Counted from the first letter of the stretch, positions 6,432 through 27,120 are shown. The stretch is 32,000 bases of DNA from Flavobacteriaceae bacterium (GCA_965224465.1 OZ245049.1:3780001-3812000); one strand, 5' to 3'. Numbers and translations are program-made. Notes: generated by a model from the sequence alone, not told the origin.

Positions 6432-6503
6432 CCATCAAAATGTATGTTTCCTAAAAGTAATATAGTACATCACTTTCATCCTATTGCTTGGGGGGAGCAG
6501 ATG
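6432..6503 (+). repeat. Conserved junction block, copy 3
   Basis: 'ccatcaaaatgtatgtttcctaaaagtaatatagtacatcactttcatcctattgcttggggggagcagatg' starts 6 nt after the preceding lipoprotein stop. It encodes MFPKSNIVHHFHPIAWGEQM, then hits a stop after 8 more codons. Confidence 0.85.
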
Positions 6504-7333: not shown

Positions 7334-7391
7334 GTATCCGTCCGACCATCCCCATATTTTTTAGTGGAAAAATAGCTTCTATTTTTGACGC

Positions 7392-7700: not shown

Positions 7701-7701
7701 T

Positions 7702-8043
7702 ATGCTAAATCTTTCAAGTGAACTTGATTTTCATCTGTACCTAGAACCCACAGATATGCGTAAAGGATTTAATGGTTTGTCAGGTGTTATCCGTAATAAT
7801 TTAGAAGAGGATCCTAGTAATGGAGCTGTTTTTATCTTCATAAATAAACCTCGAAACAAAATAAAACTATTGCATTGGCAAGCAGGTGGATTTGTACTGT
7901 ATTATAAACGATTGGAACGAGGTACTTTTGAACTTCCGGTGTATGATAATCTGAAAGGAAGTATACAAATGAAATACAGCCAAATGGTGATGCTTCTTGA
8001 TGGACTGTCTATAAAAAACATCCAACAAAGGAAACGTTATTAA
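7702..8043 (+). CDS. tnpB: IS66-family accessory protein TnpB (Orf2)
   Basis: 'DMRKGFNGLSGVIRN...GAVFIFINKPRNKIKLLHWQAGGFVLYYKRLERGTF' is the characteristic IS66 Orf2 signature. Confidence 0.85.
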   Translation: MLNLSSELDFHLYLEPTDMRKGFNGLSGVIRNNLEEDPSNGAVFIFINKPRNKIKLLHWQAGGFVLYYKRLERGTFELPVYDNLKGSIQMKYSQMVMLLDGLSIKNIQQRKRY

Positions 8044-8111
8044 TGTCTTTTTACAGGTAAAAAACCTAATAAAACCAGGCTGTTCATGTATATTTTTCGT
8101 ATATTTAATGT

Positions 8112-10697: not shown

Positions 10698-10943
10698 AGC
10701 GCAACTACACCACCTTGGATGGAGGTGGCTTTAGCAGAAGCTAAAAAAGCTAAGTTTATTAGAGAAACTTTGAGTCCAACATCTGAAATGGCTAATAAAT
10801 ACCATACTTATGTAGGGATGCCTAAAGCTACTGGTTCTACAGCTTGGAGTGCCTCTTTTGTTAATTGGTGTTTAAACGAATCTGGTCAAAAAAGTGTAAA
10901 ATCAGCCGGTTCACAAAGTATACTTTGGAATGAAGGAAAACTA
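10698..10943 (+). pseudogene. Fragment of an NlpC/P60-like (TIGR02594-like) cell-wall hydrolase toxin domain, truncated at both ends by IS debris
   Basis: 'TTPPWMEVALAEAKKAKFIRE...NKYHTYVG...TAWSASFVNWCLNESGQKSVKSAGSQSILWNEGK' follows my recollection of the PPW..A..E...E...N...WC.AFVNWCL..AG...S..A.S...WG pattern. The frame is open into the IS66 remnant on the left and runs into the IS21 end on the right. Confidence 0.4.
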
Positions 10944-11345
10944 TTTGGCTATTATGGTCGGACCATGCCACTGATTATGGTCAAACAGTGCCACTCTAAA
11001 AGATATGCAATTATAAGAAAAACATTCTTAATCTCAGTTTTGTATTCGTTTTCTTAAAGACTCACCTTGAAGGATTATTCTGTGAGATGAGTTTACGATT
11101 CTATCCAAAACAGCATCTGCAATAGTTCCTTCTCCGATAATATCATACCATCCAGAAACAGGTATTTGTGATGTTATGATGGTGGATTTATTACTGTGTC
11201 GTTCATCAATAATATCCATTAATACTTCCCTAGCATGATTGTCAAAAGACTGTAACCCGAAGTCGTCGAGTATTAATAAGTCTATTTTTATGAGTTTGTT
11301 AAGTTCTTTCAAATAGGTCCCATCGACCTTTGCTGTATCCGTCCG
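10944..11345 (-). mobile_element. istB: IS21-family right-end remnant with a C-terminal istB fragment (11034..11345)
   Basis: The minus-strand translation '...AKVDGTYLKELNKLIKIDLLILDDFG...DERHSNKSTIITSQIPVSGWYDIIGEGTIADAVLDRIVNSSHRIILQGESLRK' is the IstB Walker B through C-terminus. Downstream of its stop are repeated '..GACCATAAT..' motifs ending in ...CCATAATAGCCA, read as TGGCTATTATGG on the + strand at 10944. It is cut at 11345 by an IS66 remnant. Confidence 0.75.
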
Positions 11346-12131: not shown

Positions 12132-12518
12132 ATGTCTTTTAAAGCAAAATTAAAAGTAGGTGGACAAGAGTACAATGTATTGTCTTGTTCTTATGAATTA
12201 CATCAAGAAACTGATGCAACTGGAAGACCATCTTCTATCACTAGAGGTGGGAAAATTAGATTAACGGTTGAGTCTACAGCAGACACAAGTTTGTCTGATT
12301 GGATGTTTAATAACTTTGAGCGTAGAGACGGTTCTATTGTTTTCTTAAAAAGAGATACCGAAGCTACTGCAAAGGAATTAAAGTTTTCTGAAGGTTATAT
12401 GGTGAAATATCTAGAGAATTTTGATTCTACAGGTAAAAATCCAATGTCAGAGTCATTTATCATTTCAGCAAAATCTGTTGCAATGGGGAATGGTGAACAT
12501 GTAAATGATTGGGTGTAA
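12132..12518 (+). CDS. tssD: Bacteroidetes-type T6SS tube protein Hcp/TssD, paralog 1
   Basis: 128 aa. 'MSFKAKL.VGG.EYNVL.CSY.L.Q..DATGRPSS...GG.I.L.VEST.DTS...WM......DG.I.F.K.D....KEL.F...Y...Y.E.F......PM...F.ISA......G.....W' matches the ~130-aa T6SSiii Hcp pattern I recall from Bacteroides and Flavobacterium. Confidence 0.85.
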   Translation: MSFKAKLKVGGQEYNVLSCSYELHQETDATGRPSSITRGGKIRLTVESTADTSLSDWMFNNFERRDGSIVFLKRDTEATAKELKFSEGYMVKYLENFDSTGKNPMSESFIISAKSVAMGNGEHVNDWV

Positions 12519-12720: not shown

Positions 12721-12750
12721 AAGGAAGTGTTACAAAACACTTCCTTTTTT
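12721..12750 (+). terminator. Rho-independent terminator-like hairpin between the two hcp genes
   Basis: AAGGAAGTGTT-acaa-AACACTTCCTT (11-bp perfect stem, 4-nt loop) followed by TTTT; preceded by an A-run. Confidence 0.6.
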
Positions 12751-12792: not shown

Positions 12793-13188
12793 ATGTCGTT
12801 TTTATCACAATTAACAATAGCCGATGATACCATGAATGTATTGCGATGTTCTTTTAACTTTGAACAAGGTGCAGATGCTGCTGGTAAACCATCACAAAGA
12901 CCAAGTGGAGGGAAACTCATAATTTTAATAGAATCTACTAGTAAAACAGATTTTTTGGAATGGATGATCTCTCCCAATATGACCAAAAATGGAGAAGTTG
13001 TTTTTTATAAAAGAGACAACATGTCTAGTTTAAAAACCATTACTTTTAAAAATGCCTATTGTTTGAGCTATCAAGAAGATTTTGATGCAGAAGGGAACCA
13101 ACCTTTAAAAACACGGATTGTTGTGTCTGCAAAAGAAATTACAGTAAAGGATACTACCTTTTTCAATAACTGGTTTGATAGAGAATAA
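12793..13188 (+). CDS. tssD: Bacteroidetes-type T6SS tube protein Hcp/TssD, paralog 2 (divergent)
   Basis: 131 aa, same architecture (MSF...NVLRCSF.F.Q..DA.GKPS....GGK....IEST....F.EWM......G.V.FYKRD......I.F.NAYC..Y.E.F......P....I.VSAKEI). About one-third identity to paralog 1 by eye. Confidence 0.8.
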   Translation: MSFLSQLTIADDTMNVLRCSFNFEQGADAAGKPSQRPSGGKLIILIESTSKTDFLEWMISPNMTKNGEVVFYKRDNMSSLKTITFKNAYCLSYQEDFDAEGNQPLKTRIVVSAKEITVKDTTFFNNWFDRE

Positions 13189-13273: not shown

Positions 13274-15046
13274 ATGGCGCTACAAAGCAACACAACTATA
13301 ATTATTAAGAGACAAGAATTTTCAAGTTTTCAAAGCCTTAACTTACATCAGGAAATTGATGCATCCCATTTGTTAACACTTACGTTTAGAATGGACACAC
13401 TTGAAGATCTAGAAGAAGAACTTGCAACCAACAGTAAGGAGTTTTTGGGGGAAACAATTTCCTTGCAAACGATTCCTGCAAATGGTTTTGAAGACCGTTA
13501 TGGCGAATTGACGTTTAAAGGTATTATTACCGAAATAAAAATCATAAAAGGGCATGAGGTAAGTGATGGTGATAAAGTAGTTATAGTGGCAAAAAGCCCC
13601 GATTTTTTAACAAATGATGGTCCGCATTTTGCGTCTTACAACGATGTTTCCCTCTCAGAAATTATTGATAGTTCGTTTGAAGGCTATGATACTTCAAAAT
13701 TAGAAGTAGACATACGCCCTCAAAACAACCCTAGTTTGCATTATTCGGTACAGCATAACGAAAGTGCTTTTACGTATGTAAGTAGACTTGCAGCACAATA
13801 CGGAGAGTGGTTCTATTACGATGGCGCGAAATTAGTATTTGGAATGCCTGGTACCGAAGACTTAGAACTCACCTATGGATTTGATTTAGTAGAGTATCAG
13901 ATACGTTTGATACCTCAATCCAACAATTACAAAATATTTGCAAATGATTATTTAACCGATGAGGTACAAGAAAAATCAACAAGCGAAACCAATGCCGGTT
14001 TAAGAGGTTTTGGAGGCTTTGTTTCTGAAAAATCAAATGCCATCTACAGAAAAGAAACAAAAATTTGGCACAATTTATACAGCAATACAGAAGTGCAACA
14101 GCGTTTAGATACAGCGGTGGAATTGCAGAAAAAAGCGATTGATGTAAAACAAGTAAAAGTACAGGGTGTTTGTGATAATCCAGGAGTAAAAATTGGGAGA
14201 GTAGTTGTAATAGAAGGCAATAGATACAGAATTATAGAGGTTACACATAGCAATAATGAAATTGGCGATTATACAAATAAATTTGAAGGAATTACCGCAG
14301 ATATAAACGCATATCCATACACCAACATAAACGCATTTCCAAAAAGCGAAACACAGGTAGCTACCGTAAAAGAAAATGCAGATCCCGATGGATTGGGGCG
14401 CATAAGAGTGCAATTTCCATGGCAAGTGGAGTATAGCGAGTTAACCCCATGGGTGCGCATTGTAACACCACATGGAGGAGCAAATAAAGGATTCCATTTT
14501 ATACCAGAAATTGAAGAAAAAGTATTGGTGGGCTTTGAAGGGGGGAATGCAGAACATCCTTATATATTGGGGAGTTTGTACACGGGAAATGCCAAACCCG
14601 AAGCGTTTAAGACAGCAAATAACGATATAAAAGCGATAAAAACACGTAGTGGACATATTATTGAGTTTAATGATAGTGAAAATAAAGAAACAATTACTAT
14701 TAGGGATAAGAATAGCAACATGATACAGTTTAATACCAACGATAGCTCTATCCTTATTTCTGCTCCAGAAAAACTTACAATCATGTCTAAAGACCTAGAT
14801 ATAATGGTAAAAGAAAATTTTACTATTACAGTTGGAAAAGATAAAAAAGAGCAAATTTCAGGTGCTTATAAGTTGTCTGCTACTAACATTATAGAAATAG
14901 CTTCAGAAGCAATAAAAAGCAAAGCTGAAGAGATTTTAAATCAAGCAGATAAAGACATTACCATAACAAGTGTTAACGGGAATATAACTAAGCAGGCTGA
15001 AAAAAAAATAAATAATAACAGTGGTCAGCAAACGAACCTTTTTTAA
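13274..15046 (+). CDS. vgrG: T6SS spike protein VgrG/TssI
   Basis: 590 aa. gp27-like N-terminal half, and a gp5 OB-fold signature 'DPDGLGRIRVQFPWQ...TPWVRIVTPHGGANKGFHFIPEIEEKVLVGFEGGNAEHPYILGSLY'. C-terminal beta-helix-like repeats follow. Confidence 0.9.
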   Translation: MALQSNTTIIIKRQEFSSFQSLNLHQEIDASHLLTLTFRMDTLEDLEEELATNSKEFLGETISLQTIPANGFEDRYGELTFKGIITEIKIIKGHEVSDGDKVVIVAKSPDFLTNDGPHFASYNDVSLSEIIDSSFEGYDTSKLEVDIRPQNNPSLHYSVQHNESAFTYVSRLAAQYGEWFYYDGAKLVFGMPGTEDLELTYGFDLVEYQIRLIPQSNNYKIFANDYLTDEVQEKSTSETNAGLRGFGGFVSEKSNAIYRKETKIWHNLYSNTEVQQRLDTAVELQKKAIDVKQVKVQGVCDNPGVKIGRVVVIEGNRYRIIEVTHSNNEIGDYTNKFEGITADINAYPYTNINAFPKSETQVATVKENADPDGLGRIRVQFPWQVEYSELTPWVRIVTPHGGANKGFHFIPEIEEKVLVGFEGGNAEHPYILGSLYTGNAKPEAFKTANNDIKAIKTRSGHIIEFNDSENKETITIRDKNSNMIQFNTNDSSILISAPEKLTIMSKDLDIMVKENFTITVGKDKKEQISGAYKLSATNIIEIASEAIKSKAEEILNQADKDITITSVNGNITKQAEKKINNNSGQQTNLF

Positions 15047-15055: not shown

Positions 15056-15208
15056 ATGGCAAAGAAAAATCAAATACTTAAAATATCTAAAGGTACGATA
15101 CGCCTTTTAGCAAAAAAAGACGTGACTTTAAAAGCAAATAATATTCATTGTTCAGCAGGTGAAAATGTGAACGAAACAGCTAAACAAGGCGTGTTTTTTG
15201 GAAATTAA
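15056..15208 (+). CDS. Small ORF (50 aa) with VgrG-C-terminus-like beta-strand repeats
   Basis: The ATG lies 10 nt after the vgrG stop. MAKKNQILKISKGTIRLLAKKDVTLKANNIHCSAGENVNETAKQGVFFGN resembles the 'ITITSVNGNITKQAEKK' style of the VgrG tail. It is below the ORF-track length cut-off. Confidence 0.35.
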   Translation: MAKKNQILKISKGTIRLLAKKDVTLKANNIHCSAGENVNETAKQGVFFGN

Positions 15209-15216: not shown

Positions 15217-16032
15217 ATGAATACAAATACTGAAATACTACTAAATCATTTCAACCATGGTCTTACCAATGTGTATGGCGTAGAATGTTTTTTTAAAGAA
15301 AGCAAGAATTTGGTGAGTTATATAGTAGAAGTAACTTATAAAGCAGTTGAAGAAAGTGATTATTTACTGAAACTTACAAAAAAACGATGCTTTATTAATA
15401 AGTTAGAGCCTAAAAGCCAAATAGATGTGTTAGCACAAAGGTGTGCGGATGTTATATATCCTATAGTTTTTCAAATATCAGCTTTTGGTATTTTAACTAA
15501 AGAAAAAGTTGTGAATTTTGAAGAAATAAAACAGCGATGGAAAAGCACTTTAAAAGAATTAAAAAGGGAGTTTAAAGGCGACTATTGTAAACAGTATTTT
15601 GCGCAAATGGAAGCTAGTTTTAGAACAGAAGAAGTGTTTTATGAAAACATAAAAAACGATTTTTTATATGCACTCTTTTTTCTGAGTTTTCCTGCGTTAT
15701 ATTCAAAACATCAAACAAAGAAGGGGCTTGTTATAAAACTACCTGTTGTGGCTTATAACGATCCCGTATCTTTTGTAGGGACGCAAAAAAGTGTGTTTAC
15801 AAACAAAAAAGTATATGAACTTTATTTTAAAGGTATTGATTATGAGAATAACACCTTGGAAATAGAGCAATTAATTGATAGAGAAAGTTTTGTACTTGCT
15901 AAAGTAAAAGCAATTTATAATGCATTAAAAGAAGATGGTATTACTATTACTATAACCATGTTAAAAGAACGACAAATAAGAGAAGTCTTAAAAGAAAAGA
16001 AAAAAAATTGGTTTAATATTTTTAAAAAATAA
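15217..16032 (+). CDS. Hypothetical protein (271 aa) between vgrG and the PAAR-like gene; possible adaptor or chaperone
   Basis: Tightly packed in the operon (8 nt after the small ORF, 4 nt before the next gene). No signal peptide and no motif I recognise. Confidence 0.6.
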   Translation: MNTNTEILLNHFNHGLTNVYGVECFFKESKNLVSYIVEVTYKAVEESDYLLKLTKKRCFINKLEPKSQIDVLAQRCADVIYPIVFQISAFGILTKEKVVNFEEIKQRWKSTLKELKREFKGDYCKQYFAQMEASFRTEEVFYENIKNDFLYALFFLSFPALYSKHQTKKGLVIKLPVVAYNDPVSFVGTQKSVFTNKKVYELYFKGIDYENNTLEIEQLIDRESFVLAKVKAIYNALKEDGITITITMLKERQIREVLKEKKKNWFNIFKK

Positions 16033-16036: not shown

Positions 16037-16522
16037 ATGAGCGATGTTGCTATAGTGTGTCAAGGTGCTATGTGTAAATGTAAATATGGTTTTACACCAG
16101 ACACCTTTAAAATTGTAAGCACCCATAAAGAATACGTAAACGAGTCTAATGGCTCATCTAAAATGATTGCGACTACCTTGGATATTGGGCAACCTTTCCA
16201 AGCCAAAACTTTTGGGCAATGTAAATTACAACCTTCATCAAGTGGGTATTTACCATGCGTACCCGCCATAACACAATGGCAAGATTTTTATAAAAAAGTT
16301 ACGATAAGTAACAATGGTAAAATTTTAACAGAAGATAGCAAAGCAATATGTGCTATTGCAGGTAGCCCATGTGTTGAGTTTACTTGGCACGGGCAAATTG
16401 GTGCGCCAAGTCAATCACAAGCAGCAGAAGCAGACAATCAGGTGCATAGTCAGATAAACCCGTTAGCGAGTCCTAAAGGGGCAAAAGAAGAACCTGTTAA
16501 TCATATATTAACCATTAATTAA
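16037..16522 (+). CDS. DUF4280 (PAAR-like) domain protein
   Basis: 'VCQGAMCKCKYGFTPDTFKIV...ATTLDIGQPFQAKTFGQCKL....LPCVPAITQWQ...ILTEDSKAICAIAGSPCVEFTWHGQ' follows the DUF4280 pattern C.C..G..P..L.V...D...FG.C...PC.P....W...L...S...C..G.....GQ. A ~40-aa polar C-terminal tail follows. Confidence 0.75.
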   Translation: MSDVAIVCQGAMCKCKYGFTPDTFKIVSTHKEYVNESNGSSKMIATTLDIGQPFQAKTFGQCKLQPSSSGYLPCVPAITQWQDFYKKVTISNNGKILTEDSKAICAIAGSPCVEFTWHGQIGAPSQSQAAEADNQVHSQINPLASPKGAKEEPVNHILTIN

Positions 16523-16530: not shown

Positions 16531-19428
16531 ATGCCTCACGATAAAAAGAAGAAGCCTTACGATTATTCAAAAGATGATGTAAAAAGGTCTAAAGGTAGCT
16601 ATCAAAAAGTAATTGTAGCCGACCAAAAAAAATTAGATACTGGTATTGTAAAGAAAAGAATTTATAAAAGGTATTATGTTTTTGAAATACAATTAAATCA
16701 AAAAGTTAACTTTAAATTAAAGGTTCTCAATGCAAAAAACATAAATGAAACTGGGCAAAATGTGTACTGGATATTTCAAGACTCAACGAATTTCGAAAAA
16801 CATGTATACGGATCTTTTGAAAGCCATGAAAATAAAAACGACTTTCAGACCCATTTAAATACTCTTAATATAGGTACTAAGTATGAAGTAGCATTTTTTG
16901 AAGATGGGAGTGAAAATCCAGATTATATACACTATACAGAGGAAAGTACAAAATGTATAGGGAAAAATTATCTACCTACAAACCCTTTTAAAAGTAATAG
17001 AAAAAAAAGAGAAGGAATACTTTTGGGTAGCGTATCATATACGCCAACAGTATTAGGAAAAGGATTATGGATAGAAGGTATTAATTATACTCCTGAGTTT
17101 GAAAGTCAAGGAGCATTTATGATTGCTGTTAGCGAACCACAGATACTTAATTTATATGTAGAAAAAAGATATCGCCCAGAAAAAATTGTTAGAGAATCAG
17201 GGGTTATTACAGATCAGGAAGATACCACTCATGTAACCCAAGAACTTACCTATGGTAATATGTTAGATATACATATAAACTTACACAATATATTAGATGA
17301 TTATACCTGTACTTTAGGCGTTTTTTATGAAGATACATCTATGAGTGAAGGTTACTCAAGAATTATAGATTTAGATCAGAATAAGAAAGACAATCCTTCT
17401 TTAGATTATAACCGAAAATTTATTGAAGAGTTAGTAGTTGATTTACGTTGGGCAGGTAGATCAAAACATAAAGAAGGAAAAGATGATGAAGATTCTCTGC
17501 AAGACTATAAAATGGTGCTTACGTTTAGACCAACAAATGCAGATGAAAAATCACATGCCAAAGACTACCCAATTATAACAAGAGAAATTACGTTTACCGT
17601 AAATTACAAAGGGAATTTTAGTTATGACGAGCATGAACCTAGTTATATAACGCAAGTAGTAAAAGTACATAAACCACCATTGGTAAGTCAATCGTTTGAG
17701 GACTGTAGATACACAAGTTTATCCCTTAAGATAGGAAATCAGCCCAAATTTAATCTTTTGTATGAAGAAAAAGATGGGTCATTATCAGGTAAGTGTACTG
17801 ACAATAAAACAGCCGTTTATCAATTGGTAGCTGGCAATGTAGGTAATGTTATTCCTGTACTCATTGAAATTGATGCAGAGGTTTCAACATGTGAAGATAG
17901 CACGCTAAAGCATCAAAACAATACCTTTAATATCGAAGATATTATTCCATTAGAATTTAAAAAAGGAAAAGGAGTTTGGAAATATATAAAAAACAAGAAT
18001 ATTTTTCCTGAAGTGCAACCCTTTACTTTGGTTGGGAAAATTACAGAAAGCAGCTTGGCGTTTAATGCAGCATACCCCTATCAAGCATGGAGTGAAAGTA
18101 CATTCTTATTTAAATACCTCACTTGGCAGATAGATCCAATAGAACTATTTATTGGTGTGCGTAGCTGTAGATATGTACGTACTCCCTCTATTTATATATA
18201 TCCTGATATGGTATGGTCATTACACTTTAATTATGGTATAAAAGAAAACGAGATCCTTTATTTTCAAAATAAAAAAGTAAACTTAATATTTGGCTATGCT
18301 AACTATATGGATTATATAAAAGATGCTGTCTTATGGATTTATGAACCGTTTAAAGAATATTTTGACACGTTTTTCCCAAATGGAAACCAAGATAAATTAG
18401 AAGAACTTGTTAAAGCACTTGGGCTAGATGATGCTAAAACCTATGCCAGATTAGGCTTACATGTAAGATATGATGGTGATAAAGAAATAGATTATACAGC
18501 CATAACAAGATATAAAGCTTATATGTACTATCTTATTTTTCAGTTTGTTATGGTTTCTCTTGCCGTAGATTTATTTATATTATATCTAACCAGAGGAAAA
18601 GCATTAGAGGGCAAAGCACTAAAATTACAGAGAACGTTAAAAAGGGTAAAGAAGAGAATAAAGTCTATAGAAGAAGCAACAGAACTGGAATTTGCAATAT
18701 TATACCCAAAAATCAATGCCAATGCAGGGATCTACCGAATATCACAAGAAAATGGTGAAATTGCAACCATTATAGAAGCGACCATACAAGCAAAACCATT
18801 AATAGGCTTAAATGTGAAGTGTAAATTTGATCTTAATGAGAAAAAAGGGGTAAGTTTAATTGATAAAAAAGGGAAAGAACATAAAATAAAAAAGTTTAAA
18901 TGGTTAGAAAAACTAGTAGCAACTTTTGAATTAGATGGTCAAATAAATACAGATATTAATATAAAGTACAATACCCATTCACAAAAATTTACTACCAATG
19001 AAAATGGTGTAAAGCAAGAGTTGAAAAACGGGTATATACTTAAGAATAAAGGATCTGTAGTTGGGTATGCTGAATTGAAAGGTAAAATTGTTCTACCTGT
19101 TTCTTCTAGGGCAAACGCAATTTCCTTACATATTACGGCTAGTGCTGATACTGATTTTGGATTTAGTGAAGCTAAGGTTTTTGGAATTGATACTATTGGG
19201 CCCTTTTTTAGAATAGAATATACAATCGAAGAGTTTTCTTTAAATGTTAATATAGATGTAGTAGCTAAAAAAGGAAGAAAAACTCTTTATGATATTAAAA
19301 AAGCATTTTTAGAATTTTTTGGAATTGATACTAATGAGGAAGGTTTTGAAAAAATGTTTTTTGAAGAAAAAAAAATATTACTCCCAAAATTGTATTTATT
19401 TGATCCTTTAAGACAATTTAAAAAATAA
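16531..19428 (+). CDS. Large uncharacterised protein (965 aa), candidate T6SS cargo effector
   Basis: Lies 8 nt downstream of the PAAR-like gene and 6 nt upstream of the lipoprotein array. No signal peptide. One strongly hydrophobic segment 'AYMYYLIFQFVMVSLAVDLFILYLT' (about nt 18517..18591) is followed by a basic stretch. No catalytic motif recognised. Confidence 0.8.
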   Translation: MPHDKKKKPYDYSKDDVKRSKGSYQKVIVADQKKLDTGIVKKRIYKRYYVFEIQLNQKVNFKLKVLNAKNINETGQNVYWIFQDSTNFEKHVYGSFESHENKNDFQTHLNTLNIGTKYEVAFFEDGSENPDYIHYTEESTKCIGKNYLPTNPFKSNRKKREGILLGSVSYTPTVLGKGLWIEGINYTPEFESQGAFMIAVSEPQILNLYVEKRYRPEKIVRESGVITDQEDTTHVTQELTYGNMLDIHINLHNILDDYTCTLGVFYEDTSMSEGYSRIIDLDQNKKDNPSLDYNRKFIEELVVDLRWAGRSKHKEGKDDEDSLQDYKMVLTFRPTNADEKSHAKDYPIITREITFTVNYKGNFSYDEHEPSYITQVVKVHKPPLVSQSFEDCRYTSLSLKIGNQPKFNLLYEEKDGSLSGKCTDNKTAVYQLVAGNVGNVIPVLIEIDAEVSTCEDSTLKHQNNTFNIEDIIPLEFKKGKGVWKYIKNKNIFPEVQPFTLVGKITESSLAFNAAYPYQAWSESTFLFKYLTWQIDPIELFIGVRSCRYVRTPSIYIYPDMVWSLHFNYGIKENEILYFQNKKVNLIFGYANYMDYIKDAVLWIYEPFKEYFDTFFPNGNQDKLEELVKALGLDDAKTYARLGLHVRYDGDKEIDYTAITRYKAYMYYLIFQFVMVSLAVDLFILYLTRGKALEGKALKLQRTLKRVKKRIKSIEEATELEFAILYPKINANAGIYRISQENGEIATIIEATIQAKPLIGLNVKCKFDLNEKKGVSLIDKKGKEHKIKKFKWLEKLVATFELDGQINTDINIKYNTHSQKFTTNENGVKQELKNGYILKNKGSVVGYAELKGKIVLPVSSRANAISLHITASADTDFGFSEAKVFGIDTIGPFFRIEYTIEEFSLNVNIDVVAKKGRKTLYDIKKAFLEFFGIDTNEEGFEKMFFEEKKILLPKLYLFDPLRQFKK

Positions 19429-19434: not shown

Positions 19435-20508
19435 ATGAATTTTAAAATCTATTATCTCCTATTTGCTTTTTCATTTATAGGATGCTCACAAAATAAAAAA
19501 ACTGATACTTATACGATGAAATTAGATACTTATATAAATGACATATTAAAAAATGTTAAACATTCTATTGATGAAGAAGTGTTTTTTTTATCAATAAGAG
19601 CGTCAAAATCAACTTATAATATTCGGGTTAATGATATGTCGATTAAACAATCTTTTGATTATGAAGATGATAAAAAACAAAGGGTTTCACTAAACTTTCA
19701 TAATCTCAATAAAACATTTAAAAATTCAGGTAAACAAAGAATCTCTTTTAGTATTTATCCATTTAATAGAGACAGATTTAAAGCAAACGATAGAATAAAA
19801 ATTACTATTGAGAAATCAGATAAAACAGGTAATCTTACAGATTATATTGAATATAAGCCGAAAATGATTGACGATGCAGAAACTCCTGAGTTTACTGACA
19901 CAGAAGTGCATGAAGGAAGCTTTGAGTTTGAAGCAAAATTACCTTATAAAAAACAAATAGACTGGTCTGAGTCTAAAAGTTTAAAAGATCAAGAAAATAC
20001 AGAGCAAGAAGTACTAGAGGCGTATAAAGAAGTGATGAGATTATATGCAGAAGGAGATTTAGACAGTTTGTTAGAACTCTACAAACCTATTTTTCAAGAT
20101 GAGGCGCAGTCTGTATATGCAACTAAAGAAAAAGATTATAGGCTATCTTATGAATTAAACTGGGAACGTTTACATCCGTTTTTTTATAAATCAAAACCTA
20201 GATTAGATGCTGATTATGAATTAAAATTTTATGCAGACGGTAGATTGGTTACTTTAGAAAAGAAAAAAAACACGGCTTTAAGTTGTAACAAAAGTGCATT
20301 ATCCATCATATACGATAAAGATTTTGATAAATTCCCTGACAACTTGTTTGTAAGTGCCAAAGATTTAATAATGTTTGGAGATGGTACGATTCCGAAAAAA
20401 GAAATGGAAATATACTTATTCTTCTATAAACCAAAAGGATCAAATACTTTAAAATTAGCTACAGATATTTTTAGAAAAGAAAAATTATTAAATCCAATAG
20501 AAGATTAA
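19435..20508 (+). CDS. Array lipoprotein L1 (type A; putative immunity)
   Basis: 357 aa. MNFKIYYLLFAFSFIGCSQNKK is a lipobox. The conserved core 'GSFEFEAKLPYKKQIDWSES...EVLEAYKEVMRLYAEGDLDSLLELYKPIF' is shared with L2-L10. Confidence 0.85.
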   Translation: MNFKIYYLLFAFSFIGCSQNKKTDTYTMKLDTYINDILKNVKHSIDEEVFFLSIRASKSTYNIRVNDMSIKQSFDYEDDKKQRVSLNFHNLNKTFKNSGKQRISFSIYPFNRDRFKANDRIKITIEKSDKTGNLTDYIEYKPKMIDDAETPEFTDTEVHEGSFEFEAKLPYKKQIDWSESKSLKDQENTEQEVLEAYKEVMRLYAEGDLDSLLELYKPIFQDEAQSVYATKEKDYRLSYELNWERLHPFFYKSKPRLDADYELKFYADGRLVTLEKKKNTALSCNKSALSIIYDKDFDKFPDNLFVSAKDLIMFGDGTIPKKEMEIYLFFYKPKGSNTLKLATDIFRKEKLLNPIED

Positions 20509-21611
20509 TGAGATTAGGTAAACACATATTTCAGCATATAAAGATCGTTTTTGTGATGAGTCTTGTTTTTTGTACCGCATGTTCACAAACAAAAAATCAA
20601 AAAAAACTAGATAAAATGGCGACCAAAATAGACACTTATATAAACACCATATTAAAAAACGTAAAACACTATCCAGAAGAACCTGTTTATTTTATAGGTA
20701 GCACTGGTTCATATAAATACTACGAAATTAAGATAAATGATGTAATAGTCGTGCAAAACTATTTTTTAAAAGGTGAGGATACTTCTTCTCTTAGGAGATT
20801 TAGTAGTATCAACAATGCTCTTAATAAACAGGGCAAGCAAAAATTATCGTTTGCCCTCTTTCCTGAGGATGGTAAAACGTTTAAGTCCAATGATTGGGTT
20901 GAATTATCGATAGAAACTATGGATCAATTTAGAGAAACAAAAGAAATTTTCACGTTTGAACCTCCTATGAAATCTGATGGAGAAACCTCGGAGCATATTG
21001 GTTTAGAAAGCTATTCGGGAAGCTTTGAGTTTGAAGGAAAATTACCTTATAAAAAACAAATAGATTGGTCTGAATCTAATAGCTTAAAAGATCAAAAAAA
21101 CATAGAGCAAGAAGTGCTAGAGGCGTATAAAGAAGTGATGAGATTATATGCGGAAGGAGATTTAGACAGTTTGTTAGAACTCTACAAGCCTATTTTTCTA
21201 GACGAAGCACAGTCTGTATATGCTACTAAAGAAAAAGATTATAGGCTATCTTATGAATTAAACTGGGAACGTTTACATCCATTTTTTTATAAATCAAAAC
21301 CTACATTAGATGCGGATTATGAATTAAAATTTTATGCAGACGGTAGATTGGTTACTTTAGAAAAGAAAAAAAACACGGCTTTAAGTTATAACAAAAGTGC
21401 ATTATCCATCATATACGATAAAGATTTTGATAAATTCCCTGATGGCCTTACTAGAGCAAATAGGGATGTAGTAATGTTTGAAGATGTTGCCACTCCTAAA
21501 AAAGAAATGGAATTATACTTATTCTTCTATAAACCAAAAGGATCAAATACCTTAAAATTAGCTACAGATGTTTTTAGAGAGGAAGAATTATTAAATCCAA
21601 TAGAAGATTAA
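20508..21611 (+). CDS. Array lipoprotein L2 (type B)
   Basis: 367 aa. MRLGKHIFQHIKIVFVMSLVFCTACSQTK. The start ATG overlaps the L1 TAA by 1 nt. Confidence 0.85.
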   Translation: MRLGKHIFQHIKIVFVMSLVFCTACSQTKNQKKLDKMATKIDTYINTILKNVKHYPEEPVYFIGSTGSYKYYEIKINDVIVVQNYFLKGEDTSSLRRFSSINNALNKQGKQKLSFALFPEDGKTFKSNDWVELSIETMDQFRETKEIFTFEPPMKSDGETSEHIGLESYSGSFEFEGKLPYKKQIDWSESNSLKDQKNIEQEVLEAYKEVMRLYAEGDLDSLLELYKPIFLDEAQSVYATKEKDYRLSYELNWERLHPFFYKSKPTLDADYELKFYADGRLVTLEKKKNTALSYNKSALSIIYDKDFDKFPDGLTRANRDVVMFEDVATPKKEMELYLFFYKPKGSNTLKLATDVFREEELLNPIED

Positions 21612-22711
21612 TGAGATTAGGTAAACACATATTTCAGCATATAAAGATCGTTTTTGTGATGAGTCTTGTTTTTTGCACCGCTTGTGGGCAAACAAAAAAT
21701 CAAAAAAAACTAGATGAAATGGCTATCAAAATAGACACTTATATAAATACCATATTAAAAAATGTAAAACACTACCCAGAAGAACCTGTTTATTTAGTAG
21801 ATCTCTCTTCTCCATCAACATACTATGAAATTAAAGTAAATAATATAATAGTTGAGGAAAGTTATACAAATAATGAAGGGTCTTTTCCTATTAAATTATT
21901 TAGCAGTGTAAATGATGCTATCAATAAAGAAGGCAAGCAAAAAGTAACGTTTACTCTATTTCCTGCAGAAGATAAAACATTTAAATCTAATAGTTGGGTT
22001 GAAATATCTATAGAAACTATAAATCAATTTAGAGAAACAAAAGAAATTTTCACTTATGAACCTCCTATGAAATCTGATGGAGAAACCTCTGAACATATTG
22101 GTTTAGAAAGTTATTCGGGAAGCTTTGAGTTTGAAGCAAAATTACCTTATAAAAAACAAATAGATTGGTCTGAGTCTAAAAGCCTAAAAGAACAAAAAAA
22201 CATAGAACAAGAAGTGCTAGAGGCGTATAAAGAAGTAATGAGATTATATGCAGAAGGAGATATAGACAGTTTATTAGAACTCTATAAACCTATTTTTCAA
22301 GATGAGGCACAGTCTGTATATACTACTAAAGACAAAAAAGGTTGGGTAAATTACCGATTGAAATGGGAACGTTTACATCCATTTTTTTATAAATCAAAAC
22401 CTATATTAGATACTGATTATGAATTAAAATTTTATGCAGAGGGTAGATTAGTTACTTTAGAAAAGAAAAAAGATACTGCTTTAAGTTATAACAAAAGTGC
22501 ATTATCCATCATATACGATAAAGATTTTGATAAATTTACTGACAACTTATTTGTAAGTGCCAAAGATTTAATAATGTTTGGAGATGGTACGATTCCTAAA
22601 AAAGAAATGGAATTATACTTATTCTTTTATAAACCAAAAGGATCAAATACTTTAAAATTAGCTACAGATATTTTTAGAGAGGAAAAATTATTAAATCCAA
22701 TAGAAGATTAA
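21611..22711 (+). CDS. Array lipoprotein L3 (type B)
   Basis: 366 aa, TAATG overlap with L2. Carries the variant modules 'TTKDKKGWVNYRLKW' and 'FTDNLFVSAKDLIMFGDGTIP'. Confidence 0.85.
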   Translation: MRLGKHIFQHIKIVFVMSLVFCTACGQTKNQKKLDEMAIKIDTYINTILKNVKHYPEEPVYLVDLSSPSTYYEIKVNNIIVEESYTNNEGSFPIKLFSSVNDAINKEGKQKVTFTLFPAEDKTFKSNSWVEISIETINQFRETKEIFTYEPPMKSDGETSEHIGLESYSGSFEFEAKLPYKKQIDWSESKSLKEQKNIEQEVLEAYKEVMRLYAEGDIDSLLELYKPIFQDEAQSVYTTKDKKGWVNYRLKWERLHPFFYKSKPILDTDYELKFYAEGRLVTLEKKKDTALSYNKSALSIIYDKDFDKFTDNLFVSAKDLIMFGDGTIPKKEMELYLFFYKPKGSNTLKLATDIFREEKLLNPIED

Positions 22712-23811
22712 TGAGATTAGGTAAATACATATTTCAGCATATAAAGATCATTTTTTTGATGAGTCTTGTTTTTTGCACCGCATGTTCACAAACAAAAAAT
22801 CAAAAAAAACTAGATGAAATGGCTATCAAAATCGACACTTATATAAATACCATATTAAAAAACGTAAAACACTATCCAGAAGAACCTGTTTATTTTATAA
22901 GTAGCCCAGGTCCATATAAATACTACGAAATTAAAATAAATGATATTATAGTTATACAAAATTATTTTTCAAAAGGTGATGCCCCTTCTTATAGGAATTT
23001 TAGTAGTATCAACAATGCTCTTAATAAAAAGGGCAAGCAAAATTTAACGTTTACTCTATTCCCTTCAAAAGATAAAACGTTTCAGTCCAATGATTGGGTT
23101 GAGTTATCGATAGAAACTATGGATCAATTTAGAGAAAGAAAAGAAATTTTCACGTTTGAACCTCCTATGAAATCTGATGGAGAAACCTCGGAGCATATTG
23201 GTTTAGAAAGCTATTCGGGAAGCTTTGAGTTTGAAGCAAAATTACCTTATAAAAAACAAATAGATTGGTCTGAGTCTAAAAGTTTAAAAGATCAAAAAAA
23301 TACAGAGCAAGAAGTGCTAGAGGCGTATAAAGAAGTAATGAGATTATATGCAGAAGGAGATTTAGACAGTTTGTTAGAACTCTACAAACCTATTTTTCAA
23401 GATGAGGCGCAGTCTGTATATGCAACTAAAGAAAAAAAGAGTAGGCTAAGTTACCGATTAAACTGGGAACGTTTACATCCATTTTTTTATAAATCAAAAC
23501 CTACATTAGATGCTGATTATGAATTAAAATTTTATGCAGAGGGTAGATTGGTTACTTTAGAAAAGAAAAAAAACACGGCTTTAAGTTGTAACAAAAGTGC
23601 ATTATCCATCATATACGATAAAGATTTTGATAAATTCCCTGATGGCCTTACTAGAGCAAATAGGGATGTAGTAATGTTTGAAGATGTTGCCACTCCTAAA
23701 AAAGAAATGGAATTATACTTATTCTTCTATAAACCAAAAGGATCAAATACCTTAAAATTAGCTACAGATGTTTTTAGAGAGGAAGAATTATTAAATCCAA
23801 TAGAAGATTAA
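22711..23811 (+). CDS. Array lipoprotein L4 (type B)
   Basis: 366 aa, TAATG overlap. Carries the modules 'ATKEKKSRLSYRLNW' and 'FPDGLTRANRDVVMFEDVATP'. Same protein as L9 except three residues in the last 14 aa (DVFREEE vs DIFRKEK). Confidence 0.85.
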   Translation: MRLGKYIFQHIKIIFLMSLVFCTACSQTKNQKKLDEMAIKIDTYINTILKNVKHYPEEPVYFISSPGPYKYYEIKINDIIVIQNYFSKGDAPSYRNFSSINNALNKKGKQNLTFTLFPSKDKTFQSNDWVELSIETMDQFRERKEIFTFEPPMKSDGETSEHIGLESYSGSFEFEAKLPYKKQIDWSESKSLKDQKNTEQEVLEAYKEVMRLYAEGDLDSLLELYKPIFQDEAQSVYATKEKKSRLSYRLNWERLHPFFYKSKPTLDADYELKFYAEGRLVTLEKKKNTALSCNKSALSIIYDKDFDKFPDGLTRANRDVVMFEDVATPKKEMELYLFFYKPKGSNTLKLATDVFREEELLNPIED

Positions 23812-24878
23812 TGAGATTAGGTAAACACATATTTCAGTATATAAAGATCATTTTTGTGATGAGTCTTGTTTTTTGCACCGCTTGTGGGCAAACAAAAAAT
23901 CAAAAAAAACTAGATGAAATGGCTGTCAAAATAGACACTTATGTGAATACCATATTAAAAAATGTAAAGTATTACCCAGAAGAACCTGTTTATTTAGTGG
24001 ATCTCTCTTCTTCATCAGGATATTACGAAATTAAAATAAATGATGTAATAGTCGAGCAAAACTATTTCTCAAAAGGTGAGGACCCTTCTTCTTTTAGGAG
24101 ATTTAGTAGTATCAACAATGCTCTTAATAAACAGGGCAAGCAAAAAATATCGTTTGCCCTGTTTTCTGAGGAATATAAAACGTTTCAGTCCAATGATTGG
24201 CTTGATGTATCGATAGAAACGATGGATCAATTTAGAGAAACAAAAGAAATTTTCACGTTTGAGCCTCCTATGAAATCTGATGGAGAAACCTCGGAGCATA
24301 TTGGTTTAGAAAGCTATTCGGGAAGCTTTGAGTTTGAAGCAAAATTACCTTATAAAAAACAAATAGATTGGTCTGAGTCTAAAAGTTTAAAAGATCAAAA
24401 AAATACAGAGCAAGAAGTGTTAGAGGCGTATAAAGAAGTGATGAGATTATATGCAGAAGGAGATTTAGACAGTTTGTTAGAACTCTACAAACCTATTTTT
24501 CAAGATGAGGCGCAGTCTGTATATGCAACTAAAGAAAAAGATTATAGGGTCTCTTATGAATTAAACTGGGAACGTTTACATCCATTTTTTTATAAATCAA
24601 AACCTAGATTAGATGCGGATTATGAATTAAAATTTTATGCAGACGGTAGATTGGTTACTTTAGATAAGAAAAAAAACACGGCTTTAAGTTGTAACAAAAG
24701 TGCATTATCCATCATATACGATAAAGATTTTGATAAAATGCCTGATGGTACAAGGGTAAATATAAAATATTTAAAAATGTTTGAGGATGGTGTGGTGCCT
24801 AAAATGGAAATGGAAATATACTTATTCTTTTATAAACCAAAAGGATCAAATACTTTAAAATTAGCTACAGATATTTAA
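23811..24878 (+). CDS. Array lipoprotein L5 (type B, lacks the last ~11 conserved residues)
   Basis: 355 aa, ending '...LKLATDI*' where the other members continue 'FR.E.LLNPIED'. The 3' end is replaced by the effector-3' relic. Confidence 0.8.
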   Translation: MRLGKHIFQYIKIIFVMSLVFCTACGQTKNQKKLDEMAVKIDTYVNTILKNVKYYPEEPVYLVDLSSSSGYYEIKINDVIVEQNYFSKGEDPSSFRRFSSINNALNKQGKQKISFALFSEEYKTFQSNDWLDVSIETMDQFRETKEIFTFEPPMKSDGETSEHIGLESYSGSFEFEAKLPYKKQIDWSESKSLKDQKNTEQEVLEAYKEVMRLYAEGDLDSLLELYKPIFQDEAQSVYATKEKDYRVSYELNWERLHPFFYKSKPRLDADYELKFYADGRLVTLDKKKNTALSCNKSALSIIYDKDFDKMPDGTRVNIKYLKMFEDGVVPKMEMEIYLFFYKPKGSNTLKLATDI

Positions 24879-24940
24879 AGAAAAAAAAATTTTACTACCG
24901 AAAATTTATTTATTTGATCCATTAAGAAATTTTAAAACAA
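24877..24940 (+). pseudogene. Relic of the 3' end of a second (variant) copy of the 965-aa effector gene
   Basis: About 80% nt identity by hand alignment to 19363..19425. It translates as KEKKILLPKIYLFDPLRNFK, versus EEKKILLPKLYLFDPLRQFKK* at the end of ORF 16531..19428. It has the same spacing to the following lipoprotein start. Confidence 0.75.
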
Positions 24941-24946
24941 TTGAAA

Positions 24947-26023
24947 ATGAAAATTATTAAATTTTGTAACCGATTACTATTGATATTTACATTAGTGGCT
25001 TGCTCACAAACAAAAAGTAAGCTAAAAATAAAAAACGATCTTAAAATTATGAAAATAGATAGCTATATTTCTAACCTTATAAAAAATGTGGAGCACTTTG
25101 GTGAGGAAAAAACATTTAATCTCGATGTGTGGGTAACAAAATCGAACTATAAAATACAAATAAATGATTTGCCAGTAGAAGAATGTTTTGACTATGAAAA
25201 TAATCAACATATTTTCCGAAGTTATCAAAGTGTTAATAGTGTTCTTAAAATAGGTAGTAAACAAAAAGTGTCTTTTAAAATATGGCCACTAGATAGAAAG
25301 ACCTTTCTAAGTACTGACAAGATTAAAATAACAATAGAGGAAATAGATCAAACAGGTGAATTAAGTGATTTTTTTATTTATAATCCTCCAATGTTAGATG
25401 ATGGGGAAACCCCAGAATATGTTGGCAAAGAAAGTTATTCGGGTAGTTTTGAATTTGAAGCAACTTTACCTTATAAAAAAGAAGTTGATTGGTTTAAATC
25501 CGAAGATTTAAGGAATTCACCAAATATTCAACAGGAAGTACTAGTAGCATACAAAGAAATAGGGCGGTTGTATGAAAGTGGGGATTTTGAAACTCTGTTA
25601 CAACTATATGATCCCATATTTAAAACTGAGGCACAATCCACTTTTGCTACTAAAGAAAGATTAGACTATTTAAATGTTCCTGACAGGATTTACCCTTTTT
25701 TATATAAATCGAAAGTTGTATTAGACCCCAATTATGAAATAAAATTTTATGCTGACGGAACATTAGTAGCTTTGAAAACGAAAACTTCTGAACGGAATTA
25801 TTCTAAATCACCATTAACGATTAGATATGATAAAGATTTTGATCTTTTGCCAGAGAGTGCAAATGTAAATTCTAAAGAATTAAAACTTAATCTCAGTGGT
25901 ACGATTCCTAAAAAAGAAATGGAATTATACTTATTCTTCTATAAACCAAAAGGATCAAATACCTTAAAATTAGCTACAGATGTTTTTAGAGAGGAAGAAT
26001 TATTAAATCCAATAGAAGATTAA
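24947..26023 (+). CDS. Array lipoprotein L6 (type A, divergent)
   Basis: ATG at 24947 (the ORF track starts at TTG 24941). MKIIKFCNRLLLIFTLVACSQTK is a lipobox. It diverges from type B through most of its length, but the last ~110 nt match the L4 3' end with no differences seen. Confidence 0.85.
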   Translation: MKIIKFCNRLLLIFTLVACSQTKSKLKIKNDLKIMKIDSYISNLIKNVEHFGEEKTFNLDVWVTKSNYKIQINDLPVEECFDYENNQHIFRSYQSVNSVLKIGSKQKVSFKIWPLDRKTFLSTDKIKITIEEIDQTGELSDFFIYNPPMLDDGETPEYVGKESYSGSFEFEATLPYKKEVDWFKSEDLRNSPNIQQEVLVAYKEIGRLYESGDFETLLQLYDPIFKTEAQSTFATKERLDYLNVPDRIYPFLYKSKVVLDPNYEIKFYADGTLVALKTKTSERNYSKSPLTIRYDKDFDLLPESANVNSKELKLNLSGTIPKKEMELYLFFYKPKGSNTLKLATDVFREEELLNPIED

Positions 26024-27120
26024 TGAGATTAGGTAAATACATATTTCAGCATATAAAGATCGTTTTTGTGATGAGTCTTGTTTTTTGCACCGCTTGTTCA
26101 CAAACAAAAAATCAAAAAAAACTAGATGAAATGGCTATTAAAATAGACACTTATATAAATACCATATTAAAAAATGTAAAACACTACCCAGAAGAACCTG
26201 TTTATTTAGTAGACCTCTCTTCTTCATCAGGATATTACGAAATTAAAATAAATGATGTTATAATTGATCAACATTATTTTTCAAAAGATTACCCTACCAC
26301 AATCAGAACTTATAGCAGTATCAACAATGCTCTTAATAAAGAAGGCAAGCAAAAAGTAACGTTTACTCTATTTCCTGCAGAAGATAAAACATTTAAATCT
26401 AATAGTTGGGTTGAAATATCTATAGAAACTATAAATCAATTTAGAGAAACAAAAGAAATTTTCACTTATGAACCTCCTATGAAATCTGATGGAGAAACCT
26501 CTGAACATATTGGTTTAGAAAGTTATTCGGGAAGCTTTGAGTTTGAAGCAAAATTACCTTATAAAAAACAAATAGATTGGTCTGAGTCTAAAAGCCTAAA
26601 AGAACAAAAAAACATAGAACAAGAAGTGCTAGAGGCGTATAAAGAAGTAATGAGATTATATGCAGAAGGAGATATAGACAGTTTATTAGAACTCTATAAA
26701 CCTATTTTTCAAGATGAGGCACAGTCTGTATATACTACTAAAGACAAAAAAGGTTGGGTAAATTACCGATTGAAATGGGAACGTTTACATCCATTTTTTT
26801 ATAAATCAAAACCTATATTAGATACTGATTATGAATTAAAATTTTATGCAGAGGGTAGATTAGTTACTTTAGAAAAGAAAAAAGATACTGCTTTAAGTTA
26901 TAACAAAAGTGCATTATCCATCATATACGATAAAGATTTTGATAAATTTACTGACAACTTATTTGTAAGTGCCAAAGATTTAATAATGTTTGGAGATGGT
27001 ACGATTCCGAAAAAAGAAATGGAATTATACTTATTCTTTTATAAACCAAAAGGATCAAATACTTTAAAATTAGCAACGGATATTTTTAGAAAAGAAAAAT
27101 TATTAAACGGAGAGGATTAA
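26023..27120 (+). CDS. Array lipoprotein L7 (type B)
   Basis: 365 aa. It has a unique N-terminal patch 'IIDQHYFSKDYPTTIRTY'; from ~aa 105 it is identical to L3 except the C-terminal 'FRKEKLLNGED'. Confidence 0.85.
   Translation: MRLGKYIFQHIKIVFVMSLVFCTACSQTKNQKKLDEMAIKIDTYINTILKNVKHYPEEPVYLVDLSSSSGYYEIKINDVIIDQHYFSKDYPTTIRTYSSINNALNKEGKQKVTFTLFPAEDKTFKSNSWVEISIETINQFRETKEIFTYEPPMKSDGETSEHIGLESYSGSFEFEAKLPYKKQIDWSESKSLKEQKNIEQEVLEAYKEVMRLYAEGDIDSLLELYKPIFQDEAQSVYTTKDKKGWVNYRLKWERLHPFFYKSKPILDTDYELKFYAEGRLVTLEKKKDTALSYNKSALSIIYDKDFDKFTDNLFVSAKDLIMFGDGTIPKKEMELYLFFYKPKGSNTLKLATDIFRKEKLLNGED

Follow-up and report, generated by a model that had tools for sequence, protein, structure and literature searches.

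The closest described system to the one considered here, judged by its published description, is the Bte3/Ate3/Pte3/Bti3 set of Bacteroides fragilis. Bte3 is a large effector of a type VI secretion system (T6SS) that has no recognizable motif, and both the adaptor Ate3 and the DUF4280 tip Pte3 are required to load it onto a specific VgrG (PMC13402684). BtapC (Afe5) is stated to be an orthologue of Ate3 (PMC13402684). Bte3 is toxic only from the periplasm and is countered by Bti3, an immunity lipoprotein of the periplasm/outer membrane; the same report (Nat Commun 2026) describes structural orthologues in free-living Bacteroidota (Flavobacterium) (PMC13402684). Here we analyze a 32,000-nucleotide stretch of DNA from a marine flavobacterium (Flavobacteriaceae bacterium, GCA_965224465.1 OZ245049.1:3780001-3812000), hereafter the window. 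It contains a gene at 16531-19428 for a 965-residue protein that a first-pass annotation, made from the DNA sequence, had called a spike-associated T6SS effector.

The predicted window effector and Bte3 are both large cargo effectors without a signal peptide or recognizable motif, and in both, by prediction for the window protein, N-terminal beta-sandwiches are followed by a large C-terminal beta domain. Each is accompanied by an Ate3/BtapC-type adaptor and a DUF4280 tip beside the cognate VgrG, and each has a known or presumed lipoprotein immunity protein. They differ in size (768 residues for Bte3, 965 for the window protein) and in the placement of the accessory open reading frames (ORFs), which lie downstream of bti3 in B. 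fragilis and upstream of the effector gene in the window. The Bte3 paper mentions no hydrophobic, transmembrane (TM)-like helix, Cys3His set, swappable tip or immunity arrays, all of which are seen or predicted in the window effector system. The secondary structure given by AlphaFold2 (AF2) and the conserved core at residues 375-945 are in line with the described Bte3 layout, in a comparison of layouts rather than of superposed structures, and the TM-like helix is an extra element. When a named-protein database was searched with a profile of 81 divergent family members, only the close family was returned, so Bacteroides proteins lay out of reach; a search with the distant member P0138 gave no Bacteroides-named match. 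The PDB contains no structure of Bte3.

We conclude that the 965-residue protein is very probably an antibacterial toxin loaded on the T6SS spike of this flavobacterium. The effector call of the first-pass annotation is strongly supported, on computational grounds, by homology of the adaptor and tip proteins, a conserved gene cassette, a lipoprotein that diverges together with the effector, and orphan tip/immunity modules. For the whole account, in which a spike-loaded, polymorphic antibacterial cargo effector of the T6SSiii type carries a membrane-inserting tip and is countered by lipoprotein immunity, we estimate a probability of roughly 0.6.

Results

Gene order and predicted delivery route

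The effector gene stands at the end of a series of T6SS genes.

12132-12518, + strand: hcp/tssD copy 1 (Pfam TssD, E 2.2e-52)
12793-13188, + strand: hcp/tssD copy 2 (Pfam TssD, E 8.1e-47)
13274-15046, + strand: vgrG/tssI spike gene (Pfam Phage_base_V 8.8e-23 and Phage_GPD 1.2e-10; NCBIfam vgr_GE 6e-34)
15056-15208, + strand: 50-residue ORF, a stand-alone version of the N-terminal ~50-residue module of VgrG-adjacent cargo effectors
15217-16032, + strand: BtapC/Ate3-type T6SS adaptor, 271 residues (phmmer against PDB 9jg8_A)
16037-16522, + strand: DUF4280 PAAR-like spike tip, 161 residues (Pfam DUF4280 3.6e-20; NCBIfam IglG-like 1.2e-5; PDB 9jg8_B)
16531-19428, + strand: predicted cargo effector, 965 residues, ATG start, no known family

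Pfam and NCBIfam models bear out the order given in the first-pass annotation (hcp, hcp, vgrG, 50-residue ORF, 271-residue protein, DUF4280, effector, lipoproteins), and the effector reading frame is as it had been drawn. The accompanying statement that spacers of 4-10 nucleotides run throughout holds from vgrG to the first lipoprotein gene (9, 8, 4, 8 and 6 nucleotides) but fails upstream, where gaps of 274 nucleotides separate the two hcp genes and 85 nucleotides separate hcp from vgrG. The gap between hcp1 and hcp2 contains a perfect GC-containing hairpin (12723-12744) followed by a T-run (GGAAGTGTTACAAAACACTTCC TTTTTT), an arrangement that resembles a terminator and suggests that hcp1 is transcribed separately from the hcp2-vgrG-cassette unit.

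The 271-residue protein matches "Bacteroides T6SS Adapter Protein C" (BtapC; PDB 9jg8_A) over 129 residues (28-156; phmmer E 2.1e-9), and the DUF4280 protein matches the PAAR-like N-terminus of PDB 9jg8_B (E 3.9e-22). A BtapC homologue lies immediately upstream of the DUF4280 gene in every related locus. Two marks of T6SS cargo are therefore both present, namely an adjacent, co-inherited adaptor gene and a vgrG operon that includes a PAAR-like tip gene. With both accessory proteins identified by sequence match, the predicted delivery apparatus is that of the BtapC/Ate3 plus DUF4280 route, and comparative evidence shows the putative effector to be cargo of a spike of the VgrG/DUF4280/BtapC type. 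The homology extends to chain A and to the N-terminus of chain B of the BtapC-BtpeA complex (PDB 9jg8/9jg9). There, the PAAR-like domain of 9jg8 forms a fusion with its own DUF3289 effector domain (608 residues), whereas the window tip stands alone and the effector is a separate cargo without similarity to any 9jg8/9jg9 chain.

The 50-residue ORF shares 42-55% identity with the opening ~50 residues of proteins of 440-604 residues that are encoded directly 3' of vgrG in other loci (L001-L003, L006, L010), among them the Tle1-like lipase of L002. Its homologues are free-standing (48-49 residues) in the Tenacibaculum loci L009 and L012, and Pfam gives a weak DUF2345-like match (E 0.014). The ORF may be a VgrG-docking module that exists in both free and fused forms.

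Fte1 of F. johnsoniae was rejected as a homologue of the effector, because Fte1 is the DUF4280 protein Fjoh_3275 itself. The DUF2169/PIPY chaperone system was also rejected, since it pairs with a different PAAR-like family, DUF4150, as was kinship with BteO, a small, alpha-helical OmpA-targeting effector whose TM helix is N-terminal.

A swappable C-terminal module

The effector can be divided as follows; confidence values are predicted local distance difference test (pLDDT) scores from AF2, and the core model is described in the next section.

16603-17655, + strand: residues 25-375, N-terminal beta-sandwich region (all-beta, pLDDT mostly 77-91)
17656-18270, + strand: residues 376-580, conserved Cys3His beta-domain (C392, C454, H461 and C546 invariant, plus D559; ends with SCRYxRTP...YPDxxW)
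18271-19425, + strand: residues 581-965, putative swappable toxin module (delimited by the L012 orphan fragment, the divergence of P0018 and a 3' stub)
18505-18588, + strand: residues 659-686, hydrophobic 28-residue helix (buried D680, followed by a conserved T-R-G-K; pLDDT 87-97 in the core model)
18601-18681, + strand: residues 691-717, amphipathic helix rich in Lys/Arg (hydrophobic moment 0.49-0.61; net charge of +4 across 691-720)
18688-19293, + strand: residues 720-921, amphipathic sheet (long, ~23-residue antiparallel beta-hairpins with strict dyad amphipathicity)
24879-24940, + strand: relic of a second effector gene's 3' end (~60 nucleotides, ~85% identical to 19366-19428, encoding KKILLPKIYLFDPLR)

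Identity to homologues is distributed as a mosaic. Residues 25-375 share 43-52% identity with each homologue, however close or distant the rest of the protein; this region probably serves loading or recognition and evolves as a separate module. Over residues 376-965 the homologues fall into two groups, a close one (60-82%) and a distant one (24-49%), and P0018 alone drops to ~17% identity past residue 580. The Tenacibaculum locus L012 encodes an effector of the P0018 type followed by two immunity genes, then a start-less ORF (6848-8107) and a further immunity gene (8094-9098). This start-less ORF corresponds to the last ~420 residues of a P0011-type effector, being 80% identical to P0011 residues 629-969, and it starts just past the invariant SCRYxRTP...YPDxxW motif. 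Together, the mosaic identity, the orphan tip with its immunity gene in L012 and the stub in the window indicate a polymorphic toxin with an immunity-specified module at about residues 581-965. Comparative genomics thus shows the C-terminal ~385 residues to be the putative toxic module, matched to the immunity protein.

The locus carries the features by which polymorphic toxins are known, with a constant N-terminal and a variable C-terminal part meeting at a conserved junction and with orphan tip/immunity modules downstream. Rhs and CdiA-CT systems likewise combine a constant N-terminal part with a variable toxic C-terminal part and have a conserved motif before the junction, the place taken here by SCRYxRTP...YPDxxW. 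They also have start-less orphan tips with their own immunity genes downstream, and their immunity genes pile up in arrays. Unlike those systems, the window effector has no YD/Rhs repeats, FHA/VENN or PT-type pre-toxin motifs or autoproteolytic cleavage motifs, and the tips of its family diverge within a single fold instead of being toxin domains of unrelated kinds.

Effector sequence and predicted structure

The N-terminus of the effector is hydrophilic and has no Sec/Tat signal peptide. As the first-pass annotation had noted, hydropathy and hydrophobic-moment profiles show a single very hydrophobic segment followed by a Lys/Arg-rich helix; residues 663-689 form the sole strongly hydrophobic stretch of the protein (Kyte-Doolittle 19-residue maximum 2.29). 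The N-terminal part of ~660 residues that had been treated as one unit instead splits into the beta-sandwiches (25-375), the Cys3His domain (376-580) and a helical linker. We also found no recognizable motif. Pfam, NCBIfam and PHROG returned no family, only sub-threshold noise (CTNNBL, ScpB, phrog_20216), and single-sequence and profile searches of PDB sequences gave nothing better than E 0.7.

The whole-chain AF2 model is mediocre (pLDDT 69), with confident beta-sandwiches at residues 25-360. For residues 375-965, 75 sequences yielded a compact core model of good confidence (pLDDT 82.6; predicted TM-score 0.78). It consists of a beta-domain (~394-568), two helices (592-629), a hairpin, the hydrophobic helix (659-686), a poorly defined basic helix and a sheet (719-950) made of four ~23-residue strands and shorter ones. 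The C-terminal part had been described as beta-rich, and AF2 makes its ~250 residues almost all beta. The long strands lie at 744-767, 792-814, 835-858 and 864-886. Each has an apolar face with a mean hydropathy of +1.7 to +2.7 and a polar face of -0.7 to -2.1, a pattern conserved throughout the family.

Foldseek, which the first-pass annotation had proposed, was run with both the full chain and the core 375-965, and the core has no significant structural neighbor. For the core model, the best E values are 0.097 in PDB and 0.041 in BFVD, and the top, insignificant matches are lipid-transfer beta-sheet proteins (MTP, lipovitellin, JHBP, BPIFA1), plugged or ordinary outer-membrane barrels, beta-pore-formers and GFP-like cans. 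We read these matches as no more than a hint that the sheet curls around the hydrophobic helix. The neighbors of the whole chain (alpha-2-macroglobulin, complement and ciliary proteins) were rejected as generic Ig/MG-like multi-beta-sandwich matches, with TM-scores of at most 0.11.

The lipoprotein array

The effector gene is followed by ten tandem lipoprotein paralogues of one family (19435-31993), nearly all of which join by TAATG overlaps. The first-pass annotation had listed downstream lipoproteins; the present analysis assigns all of them to a single family, the last member being split by an insertion sequence (IS) element.

19435-20508, + strand: lipoprotein 1 (type A), 357 residues, presumed cognate immunity protein (lipobox FIGC followed by SQNKK)
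20508-24878, + strand: lipoproteins 2-5 (type B), 79-91% identical to one another and ~63% to copy 1; the C-terminus of copy 5 is truncated
24941-26023, + strand: lipoprotein 6 (type C), ~50% identical to the others; directly 3' of the effector stub, as copy 1 is of the intact effector
26023-29320, + strand: lipoproteins 7-9 (type B, by identity matrix)
29320-31993, + strand: lipoprotein 10 (type C), IS-split into 29320-29793 and 31361-31993; the halves are 89% and 98% identical to copy 6

Type A is represented by copy 1, type B by copies 2-5 and 7-9 (79-99% mutual identity) and type C by copies 6 and 10 (~50% to the rest). Copies 9 and 4 are 99% identical and copies 7 and 3 are 93% identical, which points to recent segmental duplication. 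The truncation of lipoprotein 5 falls at the stub junction (24879-24940). From this arrangement, lipoprotein 6 is the putative immunity gene of a lost second effector, the stub marking the deleted effector of a second effector-immunity cassette.

A gene of the immunity family lies directly 3' of the effector in every locus, and the neighboring lipoprotein tracks the effector: it is 64% identical to its window counterpart beside a 61% identical effector (L003), and 25-29% identical beside effectors of ~40% identity (L001, L002). Lipoboxes are present in 10/10 array members, with basic residues following, consistent with predicted immunity lipoproteins that face the periplasm.

Conservation of the family and its cassette

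A word-indexed search defined a close family of 18 clusters, all annotated as "hypothetical" and drawn from Aquimarina, Tenacibaculum and uncultured Flavobacteriaceae. A genome scan with the close-family alignment found matches in these same groups only, and the nearest relatives are Aquimarina. The order adaptor, DUF4280, effector, lipoprotein is kept in 10/10 close-family loci with flanking sequence, where the effector homologue is followed by one to five genes of the same lipoprotein family. One metagenome-assembled genome (MAG) has two different cassettes (L008, L010), and in L002 the cassette comes after a separate Tle1-lipase/DUF2931 effector-immunity module; both arrangements argue against a core structural role.

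An exhaustive profile search extended the family to a superfamily of at least 166 representative clusters (at 50% identity) across Bacteroidota, of which 113 reach E <= 1e-10. Its named members are from Flavobacterium, Flavivirga, Tenacibaculum, Aquimarina, Sungkyunkwania, Mucilaginibacter, Pedobacter and one Bacteroidales MAG. Most of the distant members have 700-1070 residues and match only profile positions ~375-945, which makes the N-terminal third the variable part; residues 25-375 are absent or replaced in distant members. Many distant members have an N-terminal "MAKGVKKI..." motif in common. The four-gene cassette is also found with the distant members P0044 (Flavobacterium kingsejongi), P0138 and P0163, whose sources are F. 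kingsejongi, a gut metagenome and another assembly, and all four of its gene families are homologous to those in the window. The cassette of L013 (gut metagenome) lies within a ClpV-Hcp-TssC-VgrG...TssG cluster.

Conservation in the core was examined in 81 divergent members that are 14-20% identical to the window effector. C392, C454, H461, C546 and P756 are invariant in 81/81, and D559 is present in 79/81. Most members keep the hydrophobic helix, and 68 of the 73 that have it place an Asp or Glu at the D680 column, with T-R-G-K next. In about 11 members (P0044, encoded at L004 10001-12874, P0045, P0047, P0050, P0052, P0056, P0060, P0063, P0065, P0073 and P0162), an OmpA peptidoglycan-binding domain is inserted between the equivalents of C392 and C546.

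The first-pass annotation had named homology to a structural T6SS component or a housekeeping family as grounds for withdrawing the effector call. Our searches found neither, and the call stands; the effector matches no T6SS structural (Tss) model in Pfam or NCBIfam, libraries in which the presence of TssN-R models is unconfirmed.

The surrounding island

Further probable effector-immunity pairs lie upstream of the T6SS genes. At 229-2794, a 267-residue lipoprotein comes after a 585-residue protein that matches phage baseplate-hub/peptidase PHROGs over its residues 182-339 (E 4e-23). At 5595-7102, a 276-residue lipoprotein is followed by a 204-residue ORF with a GH24 phage-lysozyme domain (Pfam 2e-27), which has a TTG start and is possibly a fragment.

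The island is also heavily ridden with IS elements. The segments 3122-3493, 7392-9797 and 10719-11057 contain an IstB (IS21) fragment, a complete IS66 set (TnpB and a 561-residue transposase) and a 112-residue ORF that resembles a truncated gene of the CHAP/amidase type, on the sole basis of a WSASFVNWC motif recognized by eye. Two near-identical IS4-like DDE transposase genes (477 residues) lie on the minus strand at 29796-31229 and 4068-5501. The former splits lipoprotein 10, and Pfam matches to DDE_5 and DDE_Tnp_1 are shown for the latter.

Discussion

We regard it as highly probable that the 965-residue protein is a T6SS cargo effector with a cognate lipoprotein immunity protein, and as likely that its site of action is the envelope or periplasm. 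Membrane insertion or permeabilization as the killing step is a more tentative proposal, to which we give somewhat less than an even chance. An envelope or membrane target had been suggested in the first-pass annotation from the lipoprotein partners. The ten lipoboxes with basic residues, the OmpA insertions and the periplasmic toxicity of Bte3 have since added to its support, and we continue to infer such a target; the OmpA insertions and the Bte3 precedent are what point to the periplasm or envelope.

In the mechanism that we favor, the BtapC/Ate3-type adaptor would couple the effector to the DUF4280 tip on VgrG, as homology suggests. The variable beta-sandwich region (25-375) and the Cys3His domain (376-580) would together make up the constant delivery part. 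While the protein is soluble, the apolar face of the amphipathic sheet would shield the 28-residue hydrophobic helix. Once in the periplasm of a rival, the basic amphipathic helix could dock on anionic lipid head groups, and the hydrophobic helix with its buried Asp/Glu would insert and oligomerize, so that the membrane leaks or depolarizes. The adjoining downstream lipoprotein, facing the periplasm, is predicted to bind and block the toxin module, and the nine further paralogues may guard against variant tips of relatives. On this membrane model the effector would share with VasX, Tse4, Ssp6, Tme and Tke5 an antibacterial action in the periplasm, hydrophobic inserting segments and immunity proteins of the membrane or periplasm. 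Those effectors differ in being alpha-helical, glycine-zipper or colicin-like, whereas the window effector has one helix in a large beta structure and a membrane activity that is predicted.

A bolder version of this reading, which we think unlikely, is that the core (~375-965) represents a new membrane-active toxin fold, in which a carboxylate-bearing helix is stored in an amphipathic beta-can and released in the periplasm to form or hijack an ion path. Such a helix might mimic those subunits of the Tol/Exb/Mot proton channels that have a single helix with an Asp. The same version would have the family be Bacteroidota-wide and include Bte3, with tip swapping comparable to that of Rhs/CdiA.

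Several points weigh against the favored account. Secretion, toxicity and immunity are, for this family, computational predictions. The effector has no sequence or fold similarity to known pore-formers, including VasX/colicin-like proteins, Tse4, Ssp6, Tme and BTH_I2691/Tke5, in Pfam, NCBIfam and PDB sequences or by Foldseek (best E 0.097 in PDB and 0.041 in BFVD). The proposed shielding of the helix and the proposed Cys3His metal site are drawn from secondary structure, hydropathy and model confidence values. A lone helix of TM length makes no pore, so oligomerization has to be assumed. The authors of the Bte3 study favor an outer-membrane target over pore formation, and they found that Hcp secretion, too, requires Bte3 (PMC13402684), so the role may be structural in part. 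Finally, distant homologues of the immunity protein in L013 (10273-11157, 294 residues) and L016 (10305-11126, 273 residues) have no signal peptide or lipobox as called, a misfit with a purely periplasmic target across the superfamily. Either their starts have been called wrongly or part of the superfamily works in another compartment.

An alternative that we find doubtful but worth weighing keeps the same delivery and makes the C-terminal module a non-pore "open beta-barrel" binder that takes a conserved lipid or lipidated molecule of the envelope into its apolar cavity. In a variant of this idea, the module blocks an outer-membrane assembly or transport machine (e.g. the lipoprotein, lipopolysaccharide or BAM pathways), as proposed for Bte3. 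The predicted layout resembles that published for Bte3, which comprises N-terminal beta-sandwiches and an open beta-barrel of ~360 residues at the C-terminus together with an adaptor of the Ate3/BtapC kind, a DUF4280 tip and a lipoprotein that gives immunity, although this likeness is to the published description and is independent of any sequence comparison. Distant members of ~750 residues have the conserved beta-domain at ~260-450 and C-terminal beta structure at ~520-755, which may be compared with beta3 (273-411) and the barrel (412-768) of Bte3, and the OmpA insertion places some members at the interface of peptidoglycan and outer membrane. The lipid-transfer beta-sheet proteins that head the Foldseek results would also suit a binder, but these matches are far from significant, and a very hydrophobic helix with a conserved acidic residue, accompanied by a basic helix, is more typical of membrane insertion than of ligand binding.

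It is quite improbable that the effector is instead an enzyme, with C546, H461 and D559 forming a Cys-His-Asp triad (peptidase, amidase or transglutaminase-like) in domain 376-580 that attacks peptidoglycan or envelope proteins while the C-terminal part targets or anchors it. Across the 81 very divergent members, these three residues vary little or not at all, and the peptidoglycan-binding OmpA domain of the subgroup is inserted in exactly this Cys-bearing domain. Three invariant Cys and one His nevertheless fit a metal site better than a catalytic triad, and from the residues conserved the Cys3His set is probably a structural metal site. Despite the invariant Cys and His, no NlpC/P60, papain-like or clan CD peptidase family or fold was matched in Pfam, NCBIfam or core-model Foldseek searches. 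No peptidase or amidase match of any kind came from these or from PDB sequences, and the motif search of the first-pass annotation was likewise negative. Because the swappable, immunity-linked part begins after the Cys3His domain, the activity that immunity specifies should lie downstream of it, which disfavors an enzymatic reading.

That the protein is no toxin, and instead serves the spike in a structural or accessory way (extending the tip or helping to puncture membranes) beside lipoproteins with another role, would suit the loss of Hcp secretion on bte3 deletion in B. fragilis (PMC13402684) and the position of the L013 cassette inside a core T6SS cluster, but is very improbable given the polymorphic-toxin pattern (identity distributed as a mosaic, orphan tips with immunity genes, and an array of ten immunity genes), the two different cassettes in one MAG and the placement of cassettes after separate modules such as Tle1/DUF2931, in accessory vgrG islands beside other pairs.

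Returning to the favored reading of a spike-loaded polymorphic toxin, the kind of system is already known, its paradigm having been published in 2026; what is defined here is the set of features shared by a large Bacteroidota family that lacks annotation. Hardly any T6SSiii effectors have been characterized from free-living and marine Bacteroidota, and this effector family, with at least 166 clusters, has neither a Pfam model nor a solved relative. The module boundary near residue 580, the invariant Cys3His set, D680 and the three immunity types within one array offer handles for work on mechanism. The family appears to use the adaptor and PAAR-like route that has only lately been described in gut Bacteroides, in which case the cassette for this route would be ancient and phylum-wide. 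Should Bte3 belong to the family, the shared features would bear directly on a toxin shown to shape neonatal gut colonization. The Tenacibaculum members of the family belong to fish pathogens, and the family may therefore matter for the microbiology of aquaculture.

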